From assembly GCA_965208795.1 (NCBI GenBank), contig CBDBPQ010000001.1, forward strand, positions 21,895 to 85,894: a stretch of 64,000 nucleotides of DNA. The letters run 5' to 3'. Below, piece after piece: positions 338 through 54,111 of this stretch (positions within the stretch are counted from its first letter, which is position 1; every line of letters begins with the position of its first letter). A model generated the notes under the pieces. That model had not been told where the DNA came from. It did no database searches and was given only the letters and a program-made list of their open reading frames with translations. A program made the position numbers and the translations under genes. The DNA is from Dehalococcoidia bacterium. Its GTDB lineage: Bacteria; Chloroflexota; Dehalococcoidia; Lucifugimonadales; UBA1123.

Positions 338-345
338 CCCCAAAT

Positions 346-472
346 CCCTTCCCCCTCGACGGGCTGACAGGGATCGTATGGTATAGAATTGTTGAAAATT
401 AGCGCGCCAAGTCCCTTCCTCCGTCAATGGGGAAGGTTAGAGCCTGCCCCGCGAAGGCGGGGGATGAGGGGT
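346..472 (+). repeat. composite intergenic repeat: R1 half-site + 44-nt spacer + long-variant R1 hairpin element
   Basis: cccttccccctcgacgggCTGACA (346-369), a 44-nt spacer, then aagtcccttcctccgtcaatggggaaggttag + nested hairpin gcctgccccgcgaaggcgggggat + gaggggt. The same architecture and spacer length recur at 53995..54111. Confidence 0.75.
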
Positions 473-2244: not shown

Positions 2245-4767
2245 TCAACCCAGCAGCGCCGCAAGCTCATCCGGCAGCGCCTCAATATGATTGTCGCCCA
2301 TCGGAAGAGAATCCGCAACATCCGTACCCACTAGCATCGCGCGTATCGTCCTGTCTCCTACCTCATCCCAGTATGGGGCGCGACTGTCCCCTATCCATCC
2401 TGACAGATCGCTAACCGCCGAGCGCCGCGAGCCTCCGCCGAGCGCCGCTGACAGCGCCATATCCTGCATGGATGCCAGACGCGCGGGCCACAGATCGTCA
2501 GCGGCGCGCAGGCAGGCGTCGGCTGCGGCGAGCGTGAGCCGCTTCGCGCCCAGCCTGTCCCGGTGAATCCGAAACCGCCGCATGGCCGCGTCCGTCAGCG
2601 CCCGTCGAGCCTCCACCGGCGTCGAGTCGTCGAACACGCCGATGTCTATGCCGAACCCGTGCCACAACCCGTCAGACACGATGGCGAATCGGGTAGCGTA
2701 CTCGCCGCGCTGATCATCCAGTTCAGACGTCCAGCGACCCACCCAATCAGACACCATCCGCTCCACCAGTTGCGCGGGTTGCCGCGATCCCATAAGCTCC
2801 CGGCGCGTCGCGTAGTGAGCGCGACACTCCGATTCGATTGCCGCCTCGAACTCCGACATCGCCTCAGCCGTCGCCGCGCCCTGCGTCTCGATATCCGCCT
2901 GCGCCGCTCTCAAGATGCGCCGGACCTCCGGCCCGGACACCGACGCCTCCCCCTCGCGCCTCAGCGCCAGCAGGTCGCCCTGGCGTCTTGAGAACGCGAG
3001 CGCCGGGTCGTTGACGTACACCATCATCTTGGACGCGCCGAAGCCGCCCTGCCGTCCCGTCCTGCCGCGAAGCTGACGCTCGACCCGCGCCGAACGCGGC
3101 AGCGACGCGATAAGCGCGAACAACCCCAGCGCCACTGCGTCGTCCGGACGCTCGCCGTCGTCAGCCCCCCTATCGACGCTGTCGGCGCCAAGGCGCGACG
3201 CGATCATCGAATCCACCTTGGAGTCGACAATGATGTCCGTCCCGCGTCCCGCCATGCCGGTCGAAATCGTAACCGCGCCGAACTCTCCGGCGGCGGCGAC
3301 TATCTCAGGCTCGTACTCAGGATTCGCCGCATTGAGCAGCCGGCGCTCGACTCCACGTTCACATAACGCGGCGCTTATGGCGGCGGATTCTCCCACCGTT
3401 CCGGCAGCCACCAGCGTCGGACGCCCCAGTCTGTTCCAGCTACATACCTCGTCGCACAGCGCGCGCAAGTGCGTCTCCCGGTCGAAGTACACCGTCGCGC
3501 CCAGATCCACGCGCCGCGACTCGACTTCAGGCGGAACCCTCACCGTCTCCACGCCGTAATCCCGCGCGAGCGTGTCTGCCTCCTCTAGCGCGGTGCCTGT
3601 AAGCCCGGATACCGTTCGATAGTTCGACATCAGGGCCCGGATGGTCGTTCGCGCCCGCGCCGGCGCGCGCCTATGCGCCTCCAGCTCCTCCTTCGCCTCC
3701 AACGCCTCGTGAAGCCCGTCCATGTAGCGATGCGACGGCATGGGCCGTCCGTCCAGACGGTCCACCAGCGTAACGCTGTCGTCGCCAACCACGTAATCCG
3801 TATCCGCGTCGTGGACTACGTAGGCGTTGAGTGTCTGGACCACCTCGAATGCCCCAAATGTGTCAAAAGTCCGGTCGCCCCCATTGTCATATGGGGCAAG
3901 ACGCTCCAATACCATGTCCCAGCCGCGCTCCGTAAGCCTAAGCCCAGAGCCGCCCAATCCACCCAATCCGTACGACCCGACAGCGTACAGCAAGTCGCGC
4001 TCCAACAGACTGCCATCGTCCTCGTCATTCAGCCGAGAAAGCTCTGTCATCACCTGGCGGGGCGGCGTTACAAGCGTGTCCAGCGTAGAGGCAAGCCTAC
4101 CTGTCAGCCCTCCTGCAAGCAGGATCGTCGCCAGCAGCCTCGAGTCGCCATTGCCCCTGTCTGGCTCGGTCTCCAGACAGTCATAAAGCGCGTCCACGTA
4201 TTGAGCCTGTCGTTCTATCATCTCGACCGCAAGCGTCTGGCAATCCTCGCCCAGCGTAGAGTCGCCAAGCGGTTCGCCCGAAATTATCAACGGAGTCCTA
4301 GCTTGGTCTATCAGAAGGTGGTCCGCCTCATCCACGATAGTGACGTCGAAACTCGGCTCTACGCGATGGTCTGGCGACGCGGCAACGCTGTCGCGCAGAT
4401 AGTCGAAGCCCACCTCCCGCGCCGTCGTGAACACTATCTGCGCCGCGTACCGCATCCTGCGCTCGTCGCGGCTCAGATCGTCCGTAACCAGGCCGACGCT
4501 AATGCCCAGCGACTCCAGCGCCGGCCTCAGCGTCTCATAGTCGCGGTTTGCTAGGTAGTCATTAGCGGTCAGTACGTGGACGCGCCTGTCCGACGACGCG
4601 AACTCAGCCGCCGCCATCGCGGCTGCAAGCGTCTTCCCCTCGCCGGCGTCCATCTCTACGACCACGCCACGCAGCAACAGCTTGGACGCGGCGACCTGCT
4701 GCTCCGTCGGCGTGAGACCCAGGTGGCGCCTCACTTGACGATAAATGGCATCGGCTACTCGGCTCAC
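2245..4767 (-). CDS. SecA-family motor ATPase paralog (N-terminally and C-terminally shortened)
   Basis: Aligns by eye to SecA across NBD1, NBD2 and the scaffold region. NBD1: MDAGEGKT Walker A, VLTANDYLANRD, TAREVGFDYLRD, IVDEADHLLIDQARTPLIISG. NBD2: GLTGTA, TGMAGRGTDI, QLRGRTGRQGGFG. Scaffold: AADDLWPARLASMQDM. GTG start overlaps the upstream stop (GTGA). Confidence 0.8.
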   Translation of the reverse strand: MSRVADAIYRQVRRHLGLTPTEQQVAASKLLLRGVVVEMDAGEGKTLAAAMAAAEFASSDRRVHVLTANDYLANRDYETLRPALESLGISVGLVTDDLSRDERRMRYAAQIVFTTAREVGFDYLRDSVAASPDHRVEPSFDVTIVDEADHLLIDQARTPLIISGEPLGDSTLGEDCQTLAVEMIERQAQYVDALYDCLETEPDRGNGDSRLLATILLAGGLTGRLASTLDTLVTPPRQVMTELSRLNDEDDGSLLERDLLYAVGSYGLGGLGGSGLRLTERGWDMVLERLAPYDNGGDRTFDTFGAFEVVQTLNAYVVHDADTDYVVGDDSVTLVDRLDGRPMPSHRYMDGLHEALEAKEELEAHRRAPARARTTIRALMSNYRTVSGLTGTALEEADTLARDYGVETVRVPPEVESRRVDLGATVYFDRETHLRALCDEVCSWNRLGRPTLVAAGTVGESAAISAALCERGVERRLLNAANPEYEPEIVAAAGEFGAVTISTGMAGRGTDIIVDSKVDSMIASRLGADSVDRGADDGERPDDAVALGLFALIASLPRSARVERQLRGRTGRQGGFGASKMMVYVNDPALAFSRRQGDLLALRREGEASVSGPEVRRILRAAQADIETQGAATAEAMSEFEAAIESECRAHYATRRELMGSRQPAQLVERMVSDWVGRWTSELDDQRGEYATRFAIVSDGLWHGFGIDIGVFDDSTPVEARRALTDAAMRRFRIHRDRLGAKRLTLAAADACLRAADDLWPARLASMQDMALSAALGGGSRRSAVSDLSGWIGDSRAPYWDEVGDRTIRAMLVGTDVADSLPMGDNHIEALPDELAALLG

Positions 4768-6068
4768 GGCGCGTCCCCGTCACGCTCTCTAAGGTCTGTC
4801 AGGCTGTTCGCCTTGCGTTCCTCGAGAAGCTCTGAGATCGGCCTGAACTCGAAGCGCAAATCCAGCAGTCCGCTGTCCGCCAGAAACTCGATGTCCGCGT
4901 GGTCCGCCATGATAGCCTGCATCATGGCGTCTTGCCCCGCGCCCCGTCCGGTCCGGTTGCTGTCTGCCACGCGCAGCGTCATGACTTCCCTGGTTTGCTC
5001 CGTAGTCAACGTTGCTTGCAGCGGTCCGTCCAAGCCCGAACGCTGAAGGCTGTCGAGCAGCGCGCCGTGATGAATCTTCGAGCCGAGTATGGACGCGAAC
5101 ATCCCAGACCGCCCCAGCACGTCCACCCTGGGGTCGTCCAACCCGCACGCGCACCGGCCAGGGAGAACGCGAACGAGGTCGCCTAGCCTGTACCGTAGCA
5201 GTGGCAGCCCGCGCTGTTCGAGCGTCGTCGCTATCAGATCTCCCTCTCCGTCCCGATCATGCCTCCGTGTGTCCAACTCGAACACATGCCGAGACGACAT
5301 GAGGTGGACCCCGGCGTGTGACCGGCACTCGATCCCGATGGCAGACGTCTCGCTCGTCCCGTAGTACGAAAAGACCTCGGCGCCAAGTTCATCCTCCACG
5401 ATCGCCCTCTCGCGCGCGCTCATCCCCTCGCCGATATATATGATGGAATGGATCGAGCGAACCGGATTCCTTCGCATCCCTCCGAGCAGCCGCCGTATGA
5501 TGGATGGAACGCTCACCAGTGCTGTTGGTTCTAGCCGCGCCAGCAGCCGCGCGCAATCCTCGAAATTCGCGCCCACGCTGACACAGTACGCCTCTCTCGT
5601 TCCAAGCGTCTCGCAAGCGCGTGGAAACGACACCATCACAGCCGCCGGGTCCGTGTCCACGCACGCCACGCGATCCCGTTCGCCGATACCCGCCACCGAC
5701 AGCAGATACGCCAAAAACTCATGCTCGGCGACGTTGTCCGAGTGCGTAATGAACCGCACCTTCTGACCGCCCGCGCTGCCCGAAGATGTCTCCGTGTCCA
5801 CGATGGACCGCCCGATAGATGATCCGATGGACACCGCCTCGCCCGATAGCGTCCTCGCGGCGTCCGCCCCTATTATCGGTAGGCGTCTCAGAGTGCTTAT
5901 AGGATCGTCGAGAAGTATGTCCGCGCGGCTGACGCCGGCGTCGCGGAAGTTGCGGGCGTAGGTCGGGCGAGTGTCCATGCAATGCAGAAGCATATCGCGC
6001 ACCGCGGATGCGTAGGAGAGAGGTGAGATTATCCGAACGCCGCCATCTGAGTCTAGCGTACTTGCCAT
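4764..6068 (-). CDS. adenylate-forming ligase, PaaK / coenzyme F390 synthetase / CapK-like
   Basis: P-loop-like TSSGSAGGQK, YYGTSETS, LLRYRLGDLV, GRSGMF...G.KI C-terminal lid. 434 aa, as in phenylacetate-CoA ligase-type enzymes. Confidence 0.7.
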   Translation of the reverse strand: MASTLDSDGGVRIISPLSYASAVRDMLLHCMDTRPTYARNFRDAGVSRADILLDDPISTLRRLPIIGADAARTLSGEAVSIGSSIGRSIVDTETSSGSAGGQKVRFITHSDNVAEHEFLAYLLSVAGIGERDRVACVDTDPAAVMVSFPRACETLGTREAYCVSVGANFEDCARLLARLEPTALVSVPSIIRRLLGGMRRNPVRSIHSIIYIGEGMSARERAIVEDELGAEVFSYYGTSETSAIGIECRSHAGVHLMSSRHVFELDTRRHDRDGEGDLIATTLEQRGLPLLRYRLGDLVRVLPGRCACGLDDPRVDVLGRSGMFASILGSKIHHGALLDSLQRSGLDGPLQATLTTEQTREVMTLRVADSNRTGRGAGQDAMMQAIMADHADIEFLADSGLLDLRFEFRPISELLEERKANSLTDLRERDGDAP

Positions 6069-6069
6069 C

Positions 6070-7374
6070 TCACCGCTCCGTCCCCATGGGCCTCCGCGCT
6101 GAGACCGGGTCTATCCCCGCCCTCAGGGCCGCCGCCACCCCCGTCGCCTCCCAGTAGTTCTCAACCAGGAAGAACTGCCCGTCGGCCCAGGGCAGCGCCG
6201 ACAGGTCGTTCCGCATCAGATTTCGATTCTCGCGGACGGCGATTACGGGAATCCCCTGCCGCAGCGCGGCGAGCGTTGGCAGACCCAGGCATCCGTCCGG
6301 CATCACCAGGCACGAAACGTCCTCCGCCCACAGCGTATCGGAGCGTCCGAACCGCGCCGCGCCGGGTTCGGTGAGCGGTACGATGCGCGGCGCTCGCTGC
6401 AAGCCCTTCAACACCGACTGGAAGAACGTTATGGATATGATCTCAGCCGCCATCCTCGCATCCACGATGCCCGGATCGACGGCCGCTATGTCGTCCGACT
6501 CCATCATCGGCGCGTGCGCCGCCGGGACGTCCAGCGCCGCCGACACCGCATGAGTCAGGAGCGCCTCGACTCCGCCCCACGGATTCACCATCTCGCCGCC
6601 GCTCGTAAAGTAGTCGAAGTGGTAGCGCTCCGGAACTTCCACTACCGACGCCAGCGCGACGGCATCGTAGCTGTCGCGCCTGTCTAACAGCAGCTCGATC
6701 AGGCCTTCGAACCCATCTACGCTGCCCGAGGCGCGTCCCGCGTCGGTGTAGCTGCCCGTCAGCTTCAGTGGCGGCTCGATCCTGGCGATGCCCGCGCACC
6801 GCAGCCCATACGTCGCGCGCGCCGCGTTGACCGCGTTCACCGTATAACCCGCATACCGCTCGCTGTAAGAGGCGTCCATCACTACCAGAACTCGGTTGGA
6901 TCGCGCGCGGCGCAGCCCAACCGTACCCATGAGCAGACGCGATAGCACGCTCCCTTCCACGTACAACCCGTTGGCGGGCAGTTCGTTGATGTCCGATGCG
7001 TTGACCACGTTCGGATGCGTAATCAGCGTGTCCGCCACCTGCGCCATGGCGATGGCCGCCGGCGTCGCATCCCCGGCGTGTCCGCCAATCTCCGCGCCGA
7101 TGCCCGTAGGCGCCACGAATGCGATGTTGAACTCCGCCTGCGCTTCGAACTCGCGTCGCCTGAACTCGAACAACGGCGCGACAGGGTAGGGGGCATCGCC
7201 TTCGATGACGCCCAACTCGCACTGCCACCCGTTCGCCCCGGAGTCAGTAACCGCGAACCGCACCGGCGTCGCGCCGGACAGCGCGGCGTTCACGCCTGCT
7301 CCGAGCGCGTCGAAGTCTGCGGCGGAAAACCCCGCCCCGGATGGCATGGTGACGGCGCGTTCAAGCAATCGCAA
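6070..7374 (-). CDS. conserved-looking protein of unknown function (APTGIGAEIGGHAGDA motif; possibly DUF3326-like)
   Basis: 434-aa ORF with tight 1-nt spacing to the downstream gene. The motif FVAPTGIGAEIGGHAGDATP...ITHPNVVNASD weakly recalls DUF3326; this is unverified. Start is TTG 7374 or ATG 7347. Confidence 0.5.
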   Translation of the reverse strand: MRLLERAVTMPSGAGFSAADFDALGAGVNAALSGATPVRFAVTDSGANGWQCELGVIEGDAPYPVAPLFEFRRREFEAQAEFNIAFVAPTGIGAEIGGHAGDATPAAIAMAQVADTLITHPNVVNASDINELPANGLYVEGSVLSRLLMGTVGLRRARSNRVLVVMDASYSERYAGYTVNAVNAARATYGLRCAGIARIEPPLKLTGSYTDAGRASGSVDGFEGLIELLLDRRDSYDAVALASVVEVPERYHFDYFTSGGEMVNPWGGVEALLTHAVSAALDVPAAHAPMMESDDIAAVDPGIVDARMAAEIISITFFQSVLKGLQRAPRIVPLTEPGAARFGRSDTLWAEDVSCLVMPDGCLGLPTLAALRQGIPVIAVRENRNLMRNDLSALPWADGQFFLVENYWEATGVAAALRAGIDPVSARRPMGTER

Positions 7375-8593
7375 GGGATTTTACCCCGTTTCGCGCCGCG
7401 AACTCGCCGTAGTCGTACTCGGACATCAACTCGAAAGTCCCGTCGGCCCGCATCAGGTACGCCGAAGGAATTGGGATGCCATTGAAGGCCGCGGCGCGCG
7501 CGTGGCTGTATGATCCGGAGTCCAGAATCGCCACCCGGTCGCCAAGACGCAGCCGTCCCGACAAGTAGTACTCGCCGAATACGTCGCCCGCCAGACACGA
7601 CCTCCCCGCGAGAACCGTCATGTGCCGGTCCCAACGGTCGCCTGTTTCCGAATGCTCTCCGCCTTCAGGATAGATGCGAGGCGTGAATCCATACTCGAAG
7701 ACCTCCGGCATATGGCTCGTCGAGGCGTCCAGAACCGCAACGTCCTTGCCGTCGCTCTCGAACACGTCTAGAGCCTCCGTCACAAGCACCCCCGCATTCT
7801 GTACTAGCGACGTCCCCGGCTCCACGAACGCGTCCGCCCCATGCTCCGCCCTGAGTAGGCTCGCCACACGCGCCAGCGGCTCCGCGTCCGTGCCTTGCCC
7901 AAAGTAGTATCCGCCCCCGAGATTCACCCAGCCCAATTCGGATAATCCGTCCAATCTGCCGAGCACAGGCCAAATTGCATCGAACGTGTCCGCAAGCTCC
8001 TTTAGATCGTCCGACTCGCAATTGTTATGAATGTGTATTCCCTCTATTCCACTTGGCGCGCCCTGCTCCAGCACGGCGAGATCGTACAGAGACGCCCCCA
8101 GCTTGGAATGTGGACGGCACGGATCGTACCGCCGTTCGGCAACCAGGCTCACCCCCGGATTGATCCGCAGCCCAAGCGACGCGCCGCCACCAATAGCCGT
8201 CGCCATCGCAAGCTGCGCCACCGAGTTCAGAGACAGATAATCGGCCAGAGACGCCACCTCCTCCATCTCCTCCGCTCCAAACGCGGGTGAGTAGCAGTGA
8301 ATCGTCTGCCCCGGCAGCCTCACGCTCTCAGCGGCGCGCGCCTCGAACGCCGAGCTTGCCGCGAACCCGTCCAAGTACGGAGCGAGCGTCTTCATCACCC
8401 CCCACAGCCCGCATGCCTTGAGCGTGTACAGCAGCCCGCACCCGGCGGCGTCCGCGACCTTGCGCGCGTCCGACGCGGCGGCGCGCAGCATGGTCTCGGA
8501 GTACACGTAAGCCGGCGTGACAGGAGCGCGCAGCGCGGCTGCCTGTACGGCTAACGCCTCCATGCCCATTCGATCGTCCATGCGTTCCCTCAT
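7361..8593 (-). CDS. PLP-dependent decarboxylase, carboxy(nor)spermidine decarboxylase (NspC)-like
   Basis: PAYVYSE N-terminus, LYTLKAC (PLP Lys), GIHIHNNCES, NLGGGYYF, EPGTSLV, GRSCLAGDVFGEY. The pattern is closer to NspC than to LysA. Confidence 0.6.
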   Translation of the reverse strand: MRERMDDRMGMEALAVQAAALRAPVTPAYVYSETMLRAAASDARKVADAAGCGLLYTLKACGLWGVMKTLAPYLDGFAASSAFEARAAESVRLPGQTIHCYSPAFGAEEMEEVASLADYLSLNSVAQLAMATAIGGGASLGLRINPGVSLVAERRYDPCRPHSKLGASLYDLAVLEQGAPSGIEGIHIHNNCESDDLKELADTFDAIWPVLGRLDGLSELGWVNLGGGYYFGQGTDAEPLARVASLLRAEHGADAFVEPGTSLVQNAGVLVTEALDVFESDGKDVAVLDASTSHMPEVFEYGFTPRIYPEGGEHSETGDRWDRHMTVLAGRSCLAGDVFGEYYLSGRLRLGDRVAILDSGSYSHARAAAFNGIPIPSAYLMRADGTFELMSEYDYGEFAARNGVKSLAIA

Positions 8594-8597
8594 GCGT

Positions 8598-9503
8598 TCA
8601 ATGTATCACAGATGCCGGAATACCCGTATCCAGTCGGATGATCGGCTGGACGCGCGTGTAATATGGCGTTGCCACCACTGTCTCGCCCGGCGACTCTTCC
8701 ATGTGGAAACGATGGTGATTCATGCGATACGACCCGCCGTCAGCCGCCGCTCCCAGTACGCCCAGCTCATTCTGCACGAGCAAGTTGACGCGCCGTATGG
8801 GTTTATCGCCAACTCGTCCATGGTCAGACATGAGGAAAAGTCCCTTCCCCCTTGACGGGGGAAGGTTAGGATGGGGGTGCCCAATGTAGTTATCGCCATG
8901 TGTTTCACCATCCCCGCCCGCCGAGACCGTAACGACGGCCCTGACCGACCCGGGTAGTGCGCCCATATCTACGCGAGAAGATAGAGCGACCACGATGTCC
9001 GGCTGAAAAACGTCGAGCAGCCCTTCGAGCCGGTCGGTAGCCGTGTCCACCAGGAGATGGGCCGAAATACCCATCCGAACGAACGCTGCGCACGCCTCCG
9101 CGCCGAAGTATCGGCGGGTTTCCGTGGCGACCGCCACCGCGCTTAGTTCGCCCGCGTTCGCCCGGTCCGGGACCGCCAAGCCCAGCCCGCCGCGCAGCAG
9201 TTCGACGCGGATGGCCGTCTCCGCTGCCCCTTCCGCCACCGCGGCGCGCCCCGGCGACTGTCCCAGCCACGGGCCCGGTATCCACTCGATACCGGATGCA
9301 TCGGACAACAGCGCGTCGAACCGCTGACGCCGGTAATCAGACACAGCGGTAATCGGCAGGCGCTCGAAGTCCGCGAGGGATTCGATGGAGTTGCGAGCGT
9401 CGCTCAACCTGCCCCTCCAAAACGGCGCGCGCCGCGCCGCCCGTACCGCTTCCGCCAGCAGTGATACGTGGTCGTCAGGGCGGACAGGATTCGTGGGCTT
9501 CAT
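8598..9503 (-). CDS. degenerate PaaK-like ligase N-domain protein carrying an in-frame repeat insertion
   Basis: PaaK-like layout (SLADFERLPITAVSDYRR; ...PIIRLDTG equivalent of RYRxGD), but the P-loop is replaced by QSPGRAAV and the C-terminal lid is absent. The ORF reads through the repeat at 8838-8879. Start and stop are coupled to both neighbours. Confidence 0.5.
   Translation of the reverse strand: MKPTNPVRPDDHVSLLAEAVRAARRAPFWRGRLSDARNSIESLADFERLPITAVSDYRRQRFDALLSDASGIEWIPGPWLGQSPGRAAVAEGAAETAIRVELLRGGLGLAVPDRANAGELSAVAVATETRRYFGAEACAAFVRMGISAHLLVDTATDRLEGLLDVFQPDIVVALSSRVDMGALPGSVRAVVTVSAGGDGETHGDNYIGHPHPNLPPSRGKGLFLMSDHGRVGDKPIRRVNLLVQNELGVLGAAADGGSYRMNHHRFHMEESPGETVVATPYYTRVQPIIRLDTGIPASVIH
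8838..8879 (+). repeat. R1 palindromic repeat copy (short variant) inside a CDS
   Basis: aagtcccttcccccttgacgggggaaggttaggatgggggtg is identical to the cores at 17671-17712 and 54059-54100. It is 42 bp (14 codons) and translates on the minus strand as HPHPNLPPSRGKGL. Confidence 0.85.
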
Positions 9504-10945
9504 CAGCCGTCGCGCCTGAGCTGCCGCTTCAGACCGATGACCGCCAACCCCATCTCATGCCGCTCGTCCTCGAAGGCGTTGTACCTTGCAACTAAATGCG
9601 CGTAACACCCCAGAACGGGCTCCACCGCATCCGGCTCGCGCTCCCGGAACCGCGTCCACACGTCGCCATCCATCCGCCACTCCGCGCTCGCGTCCATCTC
9701 CAGTCCGCTGGACTGCGCCATCCGTTCGTACAGCTGTCGTATCCCCTCGTAACCCTCCGCGTCCGTGTAAGGCAGCGGCGTAACTAGAAAGTCCGGCGTA
9801 ATCACTAGCCCAAGCTCATTATCGAATACCTGCACCAGATCGATCTCCGGTATGAAGTTCTCCATCGCGTAGCACAAGTCCAGCGCCAGATCGTCCGGGG
9901 CGCGGTGGTAGTAGAAGTCCTCCGGATATACGCCCATCTGCACGGGGAAGGGACGCGGACGCTCCGGATCCAGCGCGCAATCCACCGCCGCGCCCCGCTG
10001 GAACAGAAACGGGATGTTCCCGTTGGTGGCGTCAACGAGCGCCCGCTCGCCGTCCACCCTGAACTCCAGCGCCATGTGCTGCCAGTAACGCATCGCCGGC
10101 GCCGCGCCGCGAAAGTCGAACGTGTCCAGTATATGTCGCAGACGCTTTACCGGAAGCCGACCCGTCGCGTCCGGTCCCGCGAACAGGTACCGCGACTCGA
10201 AACCGAATGCGTCCGTAACGAACTTCAGCGCCTGCACCTTCTCCGAGCATATCGCGCCGCGTCCTTCGATGATGCTCGCCAGCGACTCGTCGCCCGTCTT
10301 GTAGCGCAGAGCCTCCCCCGTGAATCGAGAGTAGTTCTCGAACGGGCTGTCCCATATCGCCTGCGCCATCCGCCGCAAGAACTCCATCCGTGAGGCGTGG
10401 TCGCCGAGCGATAGGACGCGGTCCGCGTCATCGCCGCCCTCATGCGCCGCGCGCGCGACGAACTCCAGGAACTTCGACTCGCCGCGCGACCACCGCCGCC
10501 GGTGGAACCCGATCCAGTTGCGACAGTAGTCGGTCTCGCTCCTGTCTATCGTTACGTCCAGTAGCCCCACCTCCACGCCTTGAACTCGCGCTCTCGAAAC
10601 CGGTACGGTCTCGCGCGACGAAAGCTCGCGGACGCCAAGTTTGAACACAGAGCCGGGCGCCAGGCCGCCGAGCGCGCCCTCGTCCGTCAGCGTGTGCGTC
10701 AGATCCTGTATCGCCGCTAGCGCAGTCGCAGCGTCGGGCAGTATAAGCCGCCGCTTGACCAGCATATTTGGCAGCGCGTCCGGACCCGCGCCGGTCAGGT
10801 ACTTCGACACGAGCGATCCTAGTGGCGCGTCGGCGTCCGAATCCTCCACTCTCAGCGTACACGTTCGCCCCGTTAGGAAGTCGGTCCACCTCAGCAGCGT
10901 CGGACGCGCGCCTGTCGAATCTGCGCCCATGATCACGTTCCACAT
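9503..10945 (-). CDS. transglutaminase-like (Cys-His-Asp) fold protein, function unknown
   Basis: GRGAICSEKVQALKFVTDAFGFESRYLFAG resembles the TGase-core Cys segment. It is followed about 57 aa later by WQHMALEFRVDGERALVDATNG (His ... Asp at typical spacing). The stop overlaps the next start (TGATG). Confidence 0.45.
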   Translation of the reverse strand: MWNVIMGADSTGARPTLLRWTDFLTGRTCTLRVEDSDADAPLGSLVSKYLTGAGPDALPNMLVKRRLILPDAATALAAIQDLTHTLTDEGALGGLAPGSVFKLGVRELSSRETVPVSRARVQGVEVGLLDVTIDRSETDYCRNWIGFHRRRWSRGESKFLEFVARAAHEGGDDADRVLSLGDHASRMEFLRRMAQAIWDSPFENYSRFTGEALRYKTGDESLASIIEGRGAICSEKVQALKFVTDAFGFESRYLFAGPDATGRLPVKRLRHILDTFDFRGAAPAMRYWQHMALEFRVDGERALVDATNGNIPFLFQRGAAVDCALDPERPRPFPVQMGVYPEDFYYHRAPDDLALDLCYAMENFIPEIDLVQVFDNELGLVITPDFLVTPLPYTDAEGYEGIRQLYERMAQSSGLEMDASAEWRMDGDVWTRFREREPDAVEPVLGCYAHLVARYNAFEDERHEMGLAVIGLKRQLRRDG

Positions 10946-10973: not shown

Positions 10974-11660
10974 ATGTCATTCTCGCACAAAACCGCCCGC
11001 GCCCTCATCGCCATTCTGGCGCTCGTAGCGATAGTGCTCGTCGTCGCCTGCGCCCAGGCGTCCGAGCCCCCCGCGCCGACTGCTAAGGTTACTGAGCCTG
11101 CGCCGACTCCGACGCCACTGCCACCCACCGCCACCCCTCAGCCTTCCCCGACTGCGGTTCCGCCGACTCCGACCGCGCCGCCGCCCACCGCAACCGCTGA
11201 GCCGCGCCCGACGCCGCGCGTCATTCGCAGCAGGGCGCAGACAGAAAACGTCGTCGCCCCTGACTTCGAGATAGAAGCGTTCGACGGCAAGATGATTCGG
11301 CTGTCAGACTTCGCCGGTCAGGTCGTGGTGCTGAACTTCTGGGCGTCGTGGTGTCCGCCGTGCCGTTGGGAGATGCCCGCCTTCGAGGAAATATACCAGG
11401 AGTACCGCGATCAGGGGGTAACCTTCATCGGAATCGCAATGTCCGACACGCTCGAAGAAGCCAGCGGACTCGCAGTGCAGACCGGCGTAACATACCCTCT
11501 CGCGCTCGACACCACCAACGAAGTTGTCCGAGCCTACGAGGTCCGTTCGCTGCCCACCACATTCTTCATCGACAAGGATGGACGCATCCAGCGTCGCCTC
11601 ACCAGCGCCGCCAACGAAGGAATGCTCAAAGTATTCATTCGCGGCCAGCTATCCGACTAG
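10974..11660 (+). CDS. membrane-anchored TlpA/ResA-like thiol-disulfide oxidoreductase
   Basis: N-terminal TM/lipobox (VVAC), Pro/Thr/Ala linker, thioredoxin fold with WASWCPPC active site. Confidence 0.8.
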   Translation: MSFSHKTARALIAILALVAIVLVVACAQASEPPAPTAKVTEPAPTPTPLPPTATPQPSPTAVPPTPTAPPPTATAEPRPTPRVIRSRAQTENVVAPDFEIEAFDGKMIRLSDFAGQVVVLNFWASWCPPCRWEMPAFEEIYQEYRDQGVTFIGIAMSDTLEEASGLAVQTGVTYPLALDTTNEVVRAYEVRSLPTTFFIDKDGRIQRRLTSAANEGMLKVFIRGQLSD

Positions 11661-17670: not shown

Positions 17671-17722
17671 AAGTCCCTTCCCCCTTGACGGGGGAAGGTT
17701 AGGATGGGGGTGAAAACCCCGC
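17671..17722 (+). repeat. R1 palindromic repeat copy (short variant)
   Basis: Core is identical to 8838-8879 and 54059-54100, plus the shared tail aaaaccccgc. A partial extra copy, cccttgacggggatggagttag, lies at 17748-17769. Confidence 0.85.
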
Positions 17723-17774
17723 CACCTACCAGTTACACACCCCTCAGCCCTTGACGGGGATGGAGTTAGAACCC

Positions 17775-19265
17775 ATGCCAACCCAACCCAACGTAGTCTT
17801 CATCTTCAGCGACCAGCAACGCTACGACACCCTCCGCTGCTATGGCAACGACTGGATAAACGTCCCCCGCCTCAACGCGCTTGCGGATGAATCATTCGTA
17901 TTCGAGCGGGCGTATGTCGCTCAGCCCGTCTGCACGCCTGCGCGTTCGACCATCGTAACAGGCCTCTATCCGCACGCCGCCGGCCCCATCGTGAACAAGA
18001 TGGTACTGCCGCCGGACCGCAAGAGCGTTGCCGAGATGTCGCCCGACTCCTACCACACCGCGTGGTTCGGCAAGTGGCACCTGGGCGACGACGTGATTCG
18101 CCAACATGGATTCGACGAATGGGTGAGTACCGAAGACGGGCACCGTCCCGAATACACGCGCCGCGAGTACCGCACCCAGATGAGCGACTATCACCAATAC
18201 CTGGTCGCCAACGGCTACGAGCCGGATGCTCGAATGGAAGACGGAACGATGATGTTCAGCGCCATGCTGCGCGCGCGGCTTCCGGCGGAGCATCAAATGG
18301 CTTCGTTCCTAGCCGGCCGCGCCGCCGACTTCATAGACCGCAACTCCGGCGGCCCCTTCATGCTCTACGTCAGCACCTTCGAGCCGCACCCGCCATACCA
18401 CGGCCCCTATGACGATATGTACGACGCCGAAGACCTGCCCGTAGGCCCAACGTTCCTGAAAGTTCCGGAAGACAGCTCCCGCCACAACACCGTCCGCGCC
18501 GAGTACTGCACCCAGTATCTCGGACAGCCGGACGCGGAGACCGACCCGTACTTGCAGACCAACGCCGCGCGCGGCCACGATGTAACCTCCGAGGCCGGAT
18601 GGCGCGAGCTTCGCGCCCGGTACTTCGCCAACATTACGCTTGTTGACGAGATGGTAGGAACGATACTCGACGCTCTTGAACGGAACGGCGTCTCCGATAA
18701 CACGATGGTCGTCTTCACCAGCGAGCACGGCGAGATGGCGGGCGACCACGGGATGCTCGAAAAGCGCTCCATGTACGAAGAGTCGGCCCGCGTGCCGTTG
18801 TTGATGCGCGCCCCGTGGCTTTCGTCCGAGCATACGATGCTCGAAGGCGCCGTCGGACACGTTGACCTCGTGCCAACCATCCTGGACGCCATCGGCGCTA
18901 ATCTGCCGTCTCACTTGCAAGGCAAATCATTGCTGCCCGTCATGCGCGGCGACGCCACGCTCGACGGCAACGACGTCTTCGTCCAGTGGAACGGCGTCAG
19001 CGACATAGACGACAGACACCTCGGCAGCGCGGAGATCAACCTGCGCAACACCCAGCCCTGGCGCACCATAGTTCGCGACGGCTGGAAGCTCGCCCTCTGC
19101 GCCACAGATAGATGCGAGCTTTACGACATGGCAAACGACCCCTACGAGCAGACTAACCTCATAGACGACCCGGCGCAGCGCAACCGCGTCCGCGACTTGG
19201 CCGCCCGCATCCGCCTCTGGCAGCACAAAAACGGCGACCACGCCCCTCTGCCGACGATCGGGTAG
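17775..19265 (+). CDS. Cys-type sulfatase (arylsulfatase family)
   Basis: VVFIFSDQQRYDT, CTPARSTIVTGLYPH (CxPxR formylglycine motif), FTSEHGEM. ATG 17775 (MPTQPNVVF) mirrors the paralog start MPDNPNIVF. Confidence 0.85.
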   Translation: MPTQPNVVFIFSDQQRYDTLRCYGNDWINVPRLNALADESFVFERAYVAQPVCTPARSTIVTGLYPHAAGPIVNKMVLPPDRKSVAEMSPDSYHTAWFGKWHLGDDVIRQHGFDEWVSTEDGHRPEYTRREYRTQMSDYHQYLVANGYEPDARMEDGTMMFSAMLRARLPAEHQMASFLAGRAADFIDRNSGGPFMLYVSTFEPHPPYHGPYDDMYDAEDLPVGPTFLKVPEDSSRHNTVRAEYCTQYLGQPDAETDPYLQTNAARGHDVTSEAGWRELRARYFANITLVDEMVGTILDALERNGVSDNTMVVFTSEHGEMAGDHGMLEKRSMYEESARVPLLMRAPWLSSEHTMLEGAVGHVDLVPTILDAIGANLPSHLQGKSLLPVMRGDATLDGNDVFVQWNGVSDIDDRHLGSAEINLRNTQPWRTIVRDGWKLALCATDRCELYDMANDPYEQTNLIDDPAQRNRVRDLAARIRLWQHKNGDHAPLPTIG

Positions 19266-21760: not shown

Positions 21761-22941
21761 TACTAGGAACGGATTTGAATAACGAACGAATTTCCACAAC
21801 GAGAGCGGGCGCGCTCTGGGCTGCGCTCGCTCTGAGCCTTTGCCTCGCGCTGCTCACCGCCTGCTCGGTTGTCAGAACGCCGGAGGGCTGGTCCGCGGGC
21901 GCCGTATCCGGCGACAACCTGTTCATAGGCACCCAACAGGGCGAGATACTTGCGGTCGACAAGCAGACTGGCGACCTCGTATGGCGGCGCGAGTTGCCAA
22001 CCCGCGAAGACTCCGACCGCGCCATCTACGGACGGGTCGCCGTCACGGACGATGCCGTTTTCATCGGCGGCTACGATGGCATCCTGTACGCGTACGACTC
22101 CGAAGGCGACCCGATGTGGCAAGAGCCGCTGTCCGGTCGCATAGTCGGCGGCCCCACGGTGCGCGACGGCTACGTATTCGTCGGCTCCGGCAACGTATCG
22201 TCCGGAGCCGGAGTCGGAGGAGCCCTCTACGCCATAGAAATCGCCACCGACGACCCTGTCTGGACGTACCCCACCGACGGCGCCGTCTGGTCCCCTCCCA
22301 CAGTGAGCGACGGCGTGGTTTACGCCGGATCGCTCGATCACAGCGTTTACGCCGTGGACGCCGAAACGGGGGACAGCGTATGGAGTTTCCGGTCCGGCGG
22401 CGCCGTTACCTCCGGCATCGCCGTCGCCGGCGACCTGGTCATATTCGGCGGGTTCGATAGTACCCTCTACGCGCTCGACGCCAAGACCGGCAGCCTGGTC
22501 TGGCGATTCGACGGCGCAAGTGGATGGTACTGGTCCACCCCCCTGGTCGCCAACGGCGTGGCATACGCTCCTTCGCTCGACGGCCTCCTGTACGCCATAG
22601 ACGCCGATACCGGCGATCTGGTTTGGGTGTTCGACTCCGAGGGCGGCCAGATAGTCGGCAGCCCCGTATTCGTCAACGACCTGGTAGCGGTGCCCGTCGC
22701 CGACGGCGGAAACTCTCGCATCGCGCTGCTCGAACCCAACGGCAGCTTCCTCGCCGCCTGCAGAATAGACGACGACGTTCGCACCTCGCTCGAATCCGAT
22801 GGCGACCTGCTATACTTTAGCTCCAAGGACAGTTCCATAAGGGCGCTGCGAATCAAGGGAAACGGCAACCCGGACGAAGAGTGGATATTCCTCACCAACG
22901 AAGATGACCCGCGCCCCAGCGACAGGGCGAAGGCGTGCTAG
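21757..22941 (+). CDS. PQQ-like-repeat beta-propeller lipoprotein (BamB-like architecture)
   Basis: Lipobox LLTAC. Repeated blades: [86 protein letters not shown]. Start is GTG 21757 (overlaps the yidD stop) or TTG 21775. The track start 21619 lies inside yidD. Confidence 0.7.
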
Positions 22942-45573: not shown

Positions 45574-45691
45574 CTAACCTCGTCCGCGATAACCTGCGTT
45601 GCTTTACTATATTCTACGTGATTCTAACGAAAAAGGGGCAGGCTCATAAAGCCCGCCCCTTACGTTATCCTGCATCAAGTTAGGTGTATGA

Positions 45692-45757
45692 CCCCTTCCC
45701 CCTTGATGGGGGAAGGTTAGAGCCTGCCCCCGCGAAGGCGGGGGATGGGGGTGAAAG
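45692..45757 (+). repeat. R1 repeat, long variant with nested hairpin
   Basis: ccccttcccccttgatgggggaaggttag + agcctgcccccgcgaaggcgggggat + gggggtgaaagc. Abuts the stop codon of the permease gene at 45758. Orientation is opposite to the surrounding minus-strand genes. Confidence 0.8.
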
Positions 45758-48165: not shown

Positions 48166-48310
48166 TATCGAACCCTCTCAGAGTTTTGTCGAATCTCCGG
48201 CAATACGGGTGGCCCGAACGCCGCAACCAGAATTTACTACACAGATAGCTGATTACGCAATGGGCTGGGCTTAATAGGGGTACGTAAACTCCTTGACTTT
48301 CCGATTCAAC

Positions 48311-48348
48311 CCCTTTCCCCCTGATGGGAGAAGGCTGTTATGGGGGTG
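48311..48348 (+). repeat. R1 repeat, degenerate copy
   Basis: ccctttccccctgatgggagaaggctgttatgggggtg, in the SBP-permease intergenic region. Confidence 0.6.
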
Positions 48349-48392
48349 AGATCGCTGTCTCAGACTAAATTACATACCCTTCCCCACTAAAG

Positions 48393-53973: not shown

Positions 53974-53994
53974 GCCCCAATTCCTACAGCTAGA

Positions 53995-54111
53995 CCCCTT
54001 CCCCCTCGACGGGTTGACAAGTGTAGGCAATGGCAGAATTCGTAGGAAGCGCGATCCAAAGTCCCTTCCCCCTTGACGGGGGAAGGTTAGGATGGGGGTG
54101 AAAACCCCGCG
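53995..54111 (+). repeat. composite intergenic repeat: R1 half-site + 44-nt spacer + short-variant R1
   Basis: cccttccccctcgacgggTTGACA (53995-54019), a 44-nt spacer, then aagtcccttcccccttgacgggggaaggttaggatgggggtgaaaaccccgcg. Parallels 346..472. Confidence 0.8.

Follow-up and report, generated by a model that had tools for sequence, protein, structure and literature searches.

A REP-like palindromic repeat lying in frame in a predicted disordered loop of a PaaK-like protein from a Dehalococcoidia bacterium

We analysed a 64,000-nt stretch of the genome of a Dehalococcoidia bacterium (Chloroflexota; Lucifugimonadales; UBA1123), namely positions 21,895 to 85,894 of contig CBDBPQ010000001.1 (assembly GCA_965208795.1), hereafter called the window. 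An operon on its minus strand includes a gene for a protein of 301 aa, the host gene, whose reading frame contains a copy of a short palindromic repeat (Table 1). The repeat is a 42-mer, AAGTCCCTTCCCCCTTGACGGGGGAAGGTTAGGATGGGGGTG, of which the window holds exactly three exact copies, all on the plus strand, versus zero expected from 100 dinucleotide shuffles of the window. The first-pass annotation of this DNA had described the copy at 8838–8879 as identical in its core to those at 17671–17712 and 54059–54100, and exact matching confirmed this. It had also called the repeat a 42-bp palindrome, which holds for only 23 of the 42 nt (8843–8865); the rest, including the 14 nt at the 3′ end, is not palindromic. 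With the diverged or longer copies, of which there are at least three and which are also on the plus strand, the window carries at least six copies in 64 kb.

Table 1. Host operon genes and repeat copies, with their positions in the window.
Feature	Position	Strand	Remark
Host gene, 301 aa, PaaK-like adenylate-forming N-terminal-domain fold, without Pfam match	8598..9503	-	
Upstream operon gene, 480 aa, without Pfam match	9503..10945	-	stop overlaps host ATG; same layout in L001–L004
Downstream operon gene, Orn/DAP/Arg decarboxylase-family protein	7361..8593	-	begins 4 nt past host stop
Variable low-confidence loop holding the insert, residues 197–231	8811..8915	-	predicted local distance difference test score (pLDDT) <50
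Genic copy, antisense to host gene	8838..8879	+	nhmmer profile match spans 8837–8879, E=2.6e-17
Palindromic core: 9-bp stem CCTTCCCCC/GGGGGAAGG, 5-nt loop TTGAC	8843..8865	+	predicted fold about -24 kcal/mol on either strand
Non-palindromic conserved tail TTAGGATGGGGGTG, 14 nt	8866..8879	+	consensus of 104 copies
Intergenic copy, identical 42-mer with AAAACCCCGC extension	17671..17712	+	degenerate related unit after it, ~17740–17775
Intergenic copy, identical 42-mer with AAAACCCCGC extension	54059..54100	+	related 'unit X' hairpin before it, ~53990–54013
Intergenic long variant: same stem, loop TTGAT, second hairpin GCCTGCCCCCGCGAAGGCGGGGG ahead of GATGGGGGTGA tail	45690..45755	+	
Intergenic diverged long variant, CCCTTCCTCCGTCAATGGGGAAGG and second hairpin	409..470	+	
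Intergenic diverged copy CCCCTTTCCCCCTGATGGGAGAAGGCTGTTATGGGGGTGA	48308..48350	+	nhmmer E=1.1e-6

The genic copy matched the family consensus at 43 of 43 positions, with zero differences. Directly after the tail, where the consensus carries an extra trailing A, the genic copy has a C, and the 10 further bases common to both intergenic copies of the 42-mer are missing from it. The DNA on either side of the genic copy is unique coding sequence, read in one common frame and unmatched elsewhere in the window or in the collected loci, so that the repeated unit is only ~42–43 nt long; a longer mobile unit around the genic copy was rejected on the same observation.

Read on the minus strand, the insert encodes HPHPNLPPSRGKGL, which makes up residues 209–222 of the host protein, and the translation across it runs ...THGDNYIG-HPHPNLPPSRGKGL-FLMSDHGRVG.... 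The earlier description of a stop-free insert of 14 codons inside ORF (open reading frame) 8598..9503, between GDNYIG and FLMSDHG, was borne out by this translation. The predicted tryptic junction peptides of the read-through protein are ...GDNYIGHPHPNLPPSR and GLFLMSDHGR. On its sense strand every frame of the repeat unit has a stop (TGA, TAG and TGA), given the trailing A that is present in 89 of 104 copies, and on its antisense strand there is a lone TAA in one frame, leaving the other two of the three frames open. Because of this distribution of stops, a 42-nt piece leaves an ORF intact only if it is antisense and takes either of the two open frames. Among orthologues, each of these frames was found translated at the host loop.

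The host gene is one real, constrained gene. A search of 5.8 billion proteins returned 68 homologues of its product, mostly 261–275 aa long and none with a Pfam domain. All 68 are continuous across the insertion point, with invariant residues on either side of it in the family alignment; the family length without inserts is ~261 residues, and no relative has a stop or a start at the position of the insert. Between the window gene and four orthologues (dS 0.2–0.8), the dN/dS ratio, estimated by the Nei–Gojobori method, was 0.15–0.27 for residues 1–195 and 0.17–0.23 for residues 237–301. Since both halves show purifying selection, the ORF is neither a pseudogene nor two genes, and this includes the downstream part, for which decay had been considered in the first-pass annotation. 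The same annotation had taken the host ORF to be coupled to both neighbours and the read-through to be genuine; the junctions are as it described, with the host ATG overlapping the upstream stop and the downstream gene starting 4 nt after the host stop, and continuous orthologues, selection on both sides and one fold across the insert agree with a single gene.

An AlphaFold model built on an alignment had a mean pLDDT of 81 and a predicted TM-score (pTM) of 0.79. In this model the insert falls in a segment (residues 197–231) with pLDDT <50 that lies between the confident strands 189–195 and 237–244 of a single domain, so that the insert is predicted to sit in a floppy surface loop, as had been suggested for a structural check. 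Foldseek searches of the model against the PDB returned PaaK1 (2y27/2y4n), ClxA, AjiA1 and BT_0428 (E 1e-12 to 1e-9, TMq 0.61–0.69), which places the modelled fold with the N-terminal adenylation domain of PaaK-type enzymes of the ANL superfamily. At the sequence level, no Pfam family matched the host protein at E≤0.01. The protein (301 aa, ~261 without inserts) spans ~0.45–0.5 (TMt) of the 420–435-aa PaaK structures and does not include a C-terminal lid domain.

The gene order of a thioredoxin-like gene, the 480-aa gene, the host gene, the Orn/DAP/Arg decarboxylase-like gene and a DUF3326 gene is conserved in independent assemblies. The operon for the 480-aa, PaaK-like, decarboxylase-like and DUF3326 proteins occupies 2245–10945 (minus strand) of the window and was also found in loci L001–L004 and L119–L122, and in several loci it is followed by a gene for an AMP-binding enzyme. 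A divergent AhpC/TSA-thioredoxin-like protein with a Pro-rich N-terminus adjoins it (window 10974–11660). The operon may serve in biosynthesis, of the small-molecule or polyamine type.

To compare the host loop among orthologues, we aligned the DNA of each loop locally to the element, with shuffled sequences as controls. Bounded by ...AVVTVSxG and RRVNLLVQNELGVLG, the loop varies more than any other part of the family alignment and is ~10–17 residues long in relatives without the element. The element matched the loop of the window gene (protein P0001) at 43/43 positions and that of L003 (P0003) at 38/43, at the same position and in the same frame, where it reads HPHHDLPPSSGKGL. In L004 (P0008) the match was 44/44, offset by one base, and the other open frame is used, giving TPILTFPRQGGRD. 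A second, decayed copy follows 3′ of the perfect copy of L004 in the frame of the window (…PINSSREKEL), with a score of 18 versus a maximum of 15 in 5000 shuffles. A two-copy pattern, TPILTFPHQGGRD and then SPSRREGL, is also seen in P0002, at the protein level only. No element was detectable by this alignment in the loops of the close relatives L002 and L122 (P0004–7 group) or of the outgroups L119 and L120.

The copy of L003 has five substitutions, three non-synonymous and two synonymous, one of which disrupts the stem, and this mix suggests no sign of constraint on peptide or hairpin. A rough tree of the loop-stripped proteins (UPGMA on p-distances) had the topology ((P0008,(P0002,(window,(P0007,(P0003,(P0004,P0005,P0006)))))),outgroups), in which the element states are interleaved. 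On the sequences of the loop, at least two insertion events are certain, namely the two copies of L004, and three are probable. Further orthologues were sought in JGI metagenomes and none was found.

Two candidate features of the loop were discarded. The short loop of P0004–7 (EQREGVRDMAV; L002 and L122) was considered as a decayed half-copy in the second frame, but its alignment was no better than shuffles (p~0.5). A target-site duplication (GDNYIG/GDKPIR; the 9-nt TGGCGATAA) had p=0.014 against shuffles, yet 8% of real coding controls scored equally. In the distant host-family member P0059 (L121), other palindromic inserts lie in frame in two different loops (L121:3325-3410 and 3610-3640); one is a sister REP (repetitive extragenic palindromic) type, CACCCTCACCCTCAAGGGAGAGGGTGAAG, with CACCCTCATCCTGGGGGTGAAGGG nearby, and the other is a small hairpin, CCCGTGTCAAGCACGGG.

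To examine the repeat family at large, we scanned public genomes, one genome per species, for the exact 24-nt core. The core was found at 114 loci or more, most of them in metagenome-assembled genomes (MAGs) labelled Dehalococcoidia or Chloroflexota. Proteobacteria also carried it, among them the isolate Chiayiivirga flava DSM 24163, as did MAGs of Nitrospiria, Phycisphaerae and other groups; mis-binning is possible for the matches outside the Chloroflexota, except for the isolate. Alignment of 104 copies gave the unit AAAGT-CCCTTCCCCC-TTGAC-GGGGGAAGG-(T/C)TAGGATGGGGGTGA, 42–44 nt long with sharp edges from AAAGT to GGGGGTGA. The core was invariant among these copies, being also the search pattern, and the tail GGATGGGGGTG was kept at ≥92% in each column. 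The tail is conserved in other phyla as well, where it reads TTGGGATGGGGGTG. The element is hence a 9-bp GC-rich stem with TTGAC as its loop, followed by the conserved tail GGATGGGGGTGA, and some copies, including two in the window, have a second hairpin ahead of the GATGGGGGTG tail. This modular structure hints that stem-loop and tail may be separate functional parts.

Longer variants (window 409–470 and 45690–45755; L008, L044, L060, L064, L066 and L083) carry a GC-rich hairpin, e.g. GCCTGCCCCCGCGAAGGCGGGGG, between GGTTAG and GATGGGGGTGA. Another short unit, 'unit X' (CCCTTCCCCCT(T/C)GACGGGCTGACAAGGGTAGGCAAAAGT; window 342–372 and 53990–54013, and many other loci), is frequently found ahead of the main unit. 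Behind the main unit come further shared modules, e.g. ...GACTCCGCCAATCCAAGTTCAATGCCTACCCCTCTCAG..., which together with unit X form mosaic clusters similar to BIMEs (interspersed mosaic elements of bacteria).

In Proteobacteria, units with the 24-nt core and an GGGATGGGGGTG tail form inverted tail-to-tail dimers 19–50 nt apart, which is the architecture of REPINs. Such dimers were found at L016:2936-3073 (Chiayiivirga flava DSM 24163), L006:899-995 and L056:1535-1642, with arms of 40–44 nt that are 85–98% complementary. The matches in Proteobacteria and other phyla suggest that the repeat may belong to a cross-phylum REP family. The sampled Dehalococcoidia loci contained singletons or co-oriented clusters, with all nine multi-copy loci co-oriented (9/9) and no inverted dimers. 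At L073:6139-7221 (OY762063.1) there are four co-oriented copies, three of them at exactly 213-nt spacing, forming a tandem array whose longer unit includes the element.

No Rfam family matched at gathering thresholds anywhere in the window, and matches around the 17671 copy were at chance level only. By the same search, the 64-kb window contains no tRNA genes and no riboswitches. A tblastn search of the window and ~1 Mb of loci for a RAYT-type gene, with E. coli RayT as a single distant query, gave nothing below E=0.7. No exact core match was found in viral contigs, and a literature search with the sequence strings returned unrelated primer matches only and no paper describing this element. 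We also considered from its sequence whether the tail resembles an attC site or a Shine–Dalgarno sequence; GTTRRRY does not fit, and the downstream starts are 40–60 nt away.

The genomic contexts of the exact-core copies were classified with a crude gene caller based on GC content at third codon positions. There were 62 copies between unidirectional genes (44 sense and 18 antisense), 26 between convergent genes and 13 between divergent genes, and 12 were placed 'inside' an ORF by this caller. The copies in L041, L016 and L104 were rejected as intragenic, as by Pfam the true domain start lies downstream of them; the remaining copies were mostly in short ORFs or N-terminal ORF extensions. Intragenic copies are rare in the sample of ~125 copies, in which the copy of the window is the sole verified one; the only other verified internal genic copy is that of the orthologue L004, which was fetched separately. 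At L045:4982-6313 (OZ242283.1), an ORF of 443 aa that has no Pfam match includes three or more sense-orientation segments derived from the element (…PSPLTGEGWDGGEN…, …PSPSTGEGWDGGEN…), which use a CTGGGA tail variant that removes the TAG stop. This ORF could encode a genuine protein in which several copies lie in frame, or it could be spurious, spanning a repeat cluster.

The orientation of the element followed strand asymmetry. Its plus form lay on the C-rich strand at 89 of 115 loci (p=6e-9), and at 60:4 where |skew| exceeded 0.06. This polarity was independent of the neighbouring genes (sense 24:5, antisense 15:2, convergent or divergent 27:4) and held for a skew computed from coding sequence only and averaged over both gene orientations (51/63, p=7.5e-7). 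An artefact of co-oriented C-rich repeat arrays or of gene direction was rejected, as the orientation-balanced, coding-only skew retains the polarity. In the window all six copies are on the plus strand, and GC skew is negative throughout, even though the plus strand holds 35 of the 57 crude gene calls. In several complete chromosomes (e.g. OZ242283.1, CBDBCD010000002.1 and OY764155.1), copy orientation fell into two blocks, as two replichores would give. In OY762634.1 the orientation alternates (-,+,-,+,-,-,-,+,-), though local skew still matches, and rearrangements or mis-assembly are possible there. Polarity relative to the replication strand is typical of IS608/ISDra2 elements, which move as single-strand DNA by HUH transposases (PMC6006769). 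By analogy with REP/RAYT and IS200/IS605 elements, the family may thus spread by a single-strand-DNA mechanism that depends on the replication strand.

In its general properties the element fits the REP class. It is a short GC-rich stem-loop palindrome, within the ~20–45 nt of that class (unit 42–44 nt, predicted at about -24 kcal/mol), and occurs as many dispersed, mostly intergenic copies enriched in unidirectional and convergent contexts. REPs with GTAG and CGTC tags have been found within known genes in several species, where they encode 20–30 residues (Di Nocera, De Gregorio & Rocco 2013, PMC3733652). The element resembles these REPs in its short GC-rich stem-loops (in both, stems of 8–9 bp and loops of 4–5 nt), in being multi-copy and lying mainly where the neighbouring genes are unidirectional (here 44+18) or convergent (26, versus 13 divergent), and in its occasional in-frame copies in known genes, which add some tens of residues. 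Unlike them, it has no GTAG or CGTC end tag, and CGTC is found only on the antisense strand where stem and loop join; its tail of 15 nt, TTAGGATGGGGGTGA, is conserved and not palindromic; and its sampled Dehalococcoidia copies stand singly or in co-oriented clusters and form no head-to-head dimers. For Chloroflexi, Di Nocera 2013 gives GTAG repeats only (Thermomicrobium roseum), and the enzyme that mobilises CGTC REPs was given there as unknown (PMC3733652).

Palindromic repeats translated in frame were first described in Rickettsia as Rickettsia palindromic elements (RPEs; PMC10969869). The likeness to RPEs drawn in the first-pass annotation holds for behaviour and not for family. As with RPEs, a palindromic repeat lies in frame in functional genes and is translated as an extra peptide with the host protein preserved. 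RPEs are ~100–150 bp long (RPE-1), Rickettsia-specific and CGTC-tagged, with nearly half of the copies of some families intragenic (PMC10969869, PMC3733652), whereas the present element is 42–44 nt long, unrelated in sequence, found in a free-living or symbiotic Chloroflexota lineage, and rarely intragenic. By its length, its lack of an end tag and its hosts, which are Chloroflexota MAGs, it does not belong by sequence to RPE-1 to RPE-10 (~100–150 bp, or CGTC-tagged in RPE-4 and RPE-6).

The REPIN/RAYT system (Bertels & Rainey 2011, PMC3116915; Nunvar 2010, PMC2817692) shares with the element a REP-like hairpin, inverted dimers in its proteobacterial relatives, and an orientation that follows strand asymmetry, as HUH-type mobilisation of single-strand DNA would lead one to expect (PMC6006769). 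Set against this, our tblastn search of the window and ~1 Mb of loci found no RAYT, there is no GTAG tag, and the sampled Dehalococcoidia loci have no inverted dimers. The intragenic repeat units of enterobacteria (Delihas 2007, PMC2759123) are likewise small intergenic repeats that sometimes lie within ORFs and give new peptide segments. Those units are 100–170 bp long and resemble MITEs (transposable elements of the miniature inverted-repeat type) with terminal inverted repeats, whereas the element is far shorter and without such repeats. Its sole inverted repeat is the central stem, its ends AAAGT and GGGGGTGA are not complementary, and there is no significant target duplication; it is not a MITE. 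The case is a known kind of event, as in Rickettsia and other bacteria, now in an uncultured Chloroflexota lineage and with the same loop struck more than once.

The explanation that we hold with considerable confidence is that a REP-like repeat landed antisense in a disordered loop of a functional PaaK-like N-domain protein, is read through, and persists as a tolerated passenger. A repeat of 42–44 nt would have inserted antisense into the DNA of a disordered surface loop, its length of 14 codons and its two open antisense frames would let the ribosome pass through the insert, and the protein would gain the Pro/Gly-rich stretch HPHPNLPPSRGKGL; the loop would have been struck or refreshed repeatedly. 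Selection would act as a filter, with only antisense copies in a permissive loop surviving, and such a survival filter on a permissive, disordered loop is the simplest account of the read-through. Rather than an adaptation, the insert is most probably neutral or mildly deleterious.

Several observations weigh against this explanation or parts of it. The consensus AAAGT-CCCTTCCCCC-TTGAC-GGGGGAAGG-TTAGGATGGGGGTGA lacks the end tag of the GTAG and CGTC super-families, and no RAYT-type gene was found, by a tblastn search of low sensitivity in a small fraction of the genomes. The read-through at the junction is itself predicted from the DNA. A near-identical strain with an empty allele, which would fix the precise target and show any duplication, was not found; the direct repeat of 9 nt beside the copy, TGGCGATAA, was not significant against real-sequence controls. 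The pristine window copy, set against a host dS of 0.2–0.8, does not fit a simple old neutral passenger, and the two together require recent insertion, gene conversion or constraint.

An alternative is that the loop is a genuine hot spot for insertion, or that gene conversion has acted on it repeatedly, with an older decayed copy or G-rich microhomology in the ancestral loop attracting new copies or being refreshed. We give it a little under an even chance of being right. The pristine window copy would then be a secondary event from intergenic donors, so that the hot spot would refine the passenger explanation, not replace it. The two direct copies in the loop of L004, one perfect (44/44) and one decayed, and the same pattern in P0002 at the protein level speak for it, as does the gradation from 43/43 in the window through 38/43 in L003 to heavy decay in L004, all in the same frame. 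Zero changes in 42 neutral sites would be unlikely (rough P <1e-3 for ≥8 expected changes), and the window copy is unlikely to descend undisturbed from the old insertion in that frame whose decayed form is seen in L004. Palindromic inserts of other kinds in two loops of P0059 (L121) point the same way, and the loop of the outgroup L119 contains GGGGAACGGGAC, which weakly resembles the 3′ arm of the element (p=0.086). However, permissiveness alone could give this pattern if insertions survive in few places, and the lineages are few, the tree is a UPGMA tree of p-distances and P0002 is known from protein only. Loop alleles may also have moved between strains by homologous recombination. The repeated colonisation of the loop could possibly have come about by recurrent insertion, by gene conversion from intergenic copies, or by such exchange of loop alleles.

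Another alternative is that the 14 residues form a functional loop, or that the hairpin in mRNA or DNA is regulatory, for instance by making translation pause, by offering an RNase site or by terminating antisense transcription. The copy's perfect match to the consensus, its hairpin of -24 kcal/mol included, and element-derived sequence in the loops of several lineages would agree with such exaptation, but we regard it as improbable: the orthologues use different frames and so carry unrelated peptides, the substitutions of L003 break the stem and look like a neutral mix of non-synonymous and synonymous changes, the close relatives L002 and L122 and all outgroups are without the element, and the model shows no ordered structure in the segment. 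That the ORF is not one functional gene but two genes with a REP spacer, a recent pseudogene or an assembly artefact, as the usually intergenic position of REPs, the lack of a Pfam match and the metagenome-type source might suggest, is very improbable given 68 of 68 continuous homologues, a single fold spanning the point, purifying selection on both flanks, unique coding flanks in frame with each other, and the element in the same loop in the independent assemblies L003, L004 and P0002.

Beyond a routine case of an intragenic repeat, what stands out is the repeated colonisation of one loop in both open frames, the pristine copy despite host divergence, and an untagged, strand-polarised, cross-phylum family. 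We put forward, tentatively and as a rather doubtful possibility, that these are facets of an undescribed and untagged REP/REPIN-type family of Chloroflexota, Proteobacteria, Nitrospirota and Planctomycetota, oriented by the replication strand, which repeatedly enters one coding loop as a diversification site. If this is true, selfish DNA would make lineage-specific peptide segments at that loop, in either open antisense frame. The finding extends translated palindromic selfish DNA, best known from Rickettsia, to uncultured Dehalococcoidia-type Chloroflexota and to a 14-codon REP-like unit. The orthologues form a natural series at one loop (empty, fresh in frame 1, fresh in frame 2, decayed, and double) for studying how proteins tolerate or recruit such sequence. 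Copies within genes can mislead gene callers and domain annotation and may be used as strain-level markers. With its conserved tail, strand polarity and presence in several phyla, the family is a candidate for finding the mover of untagged REPs.

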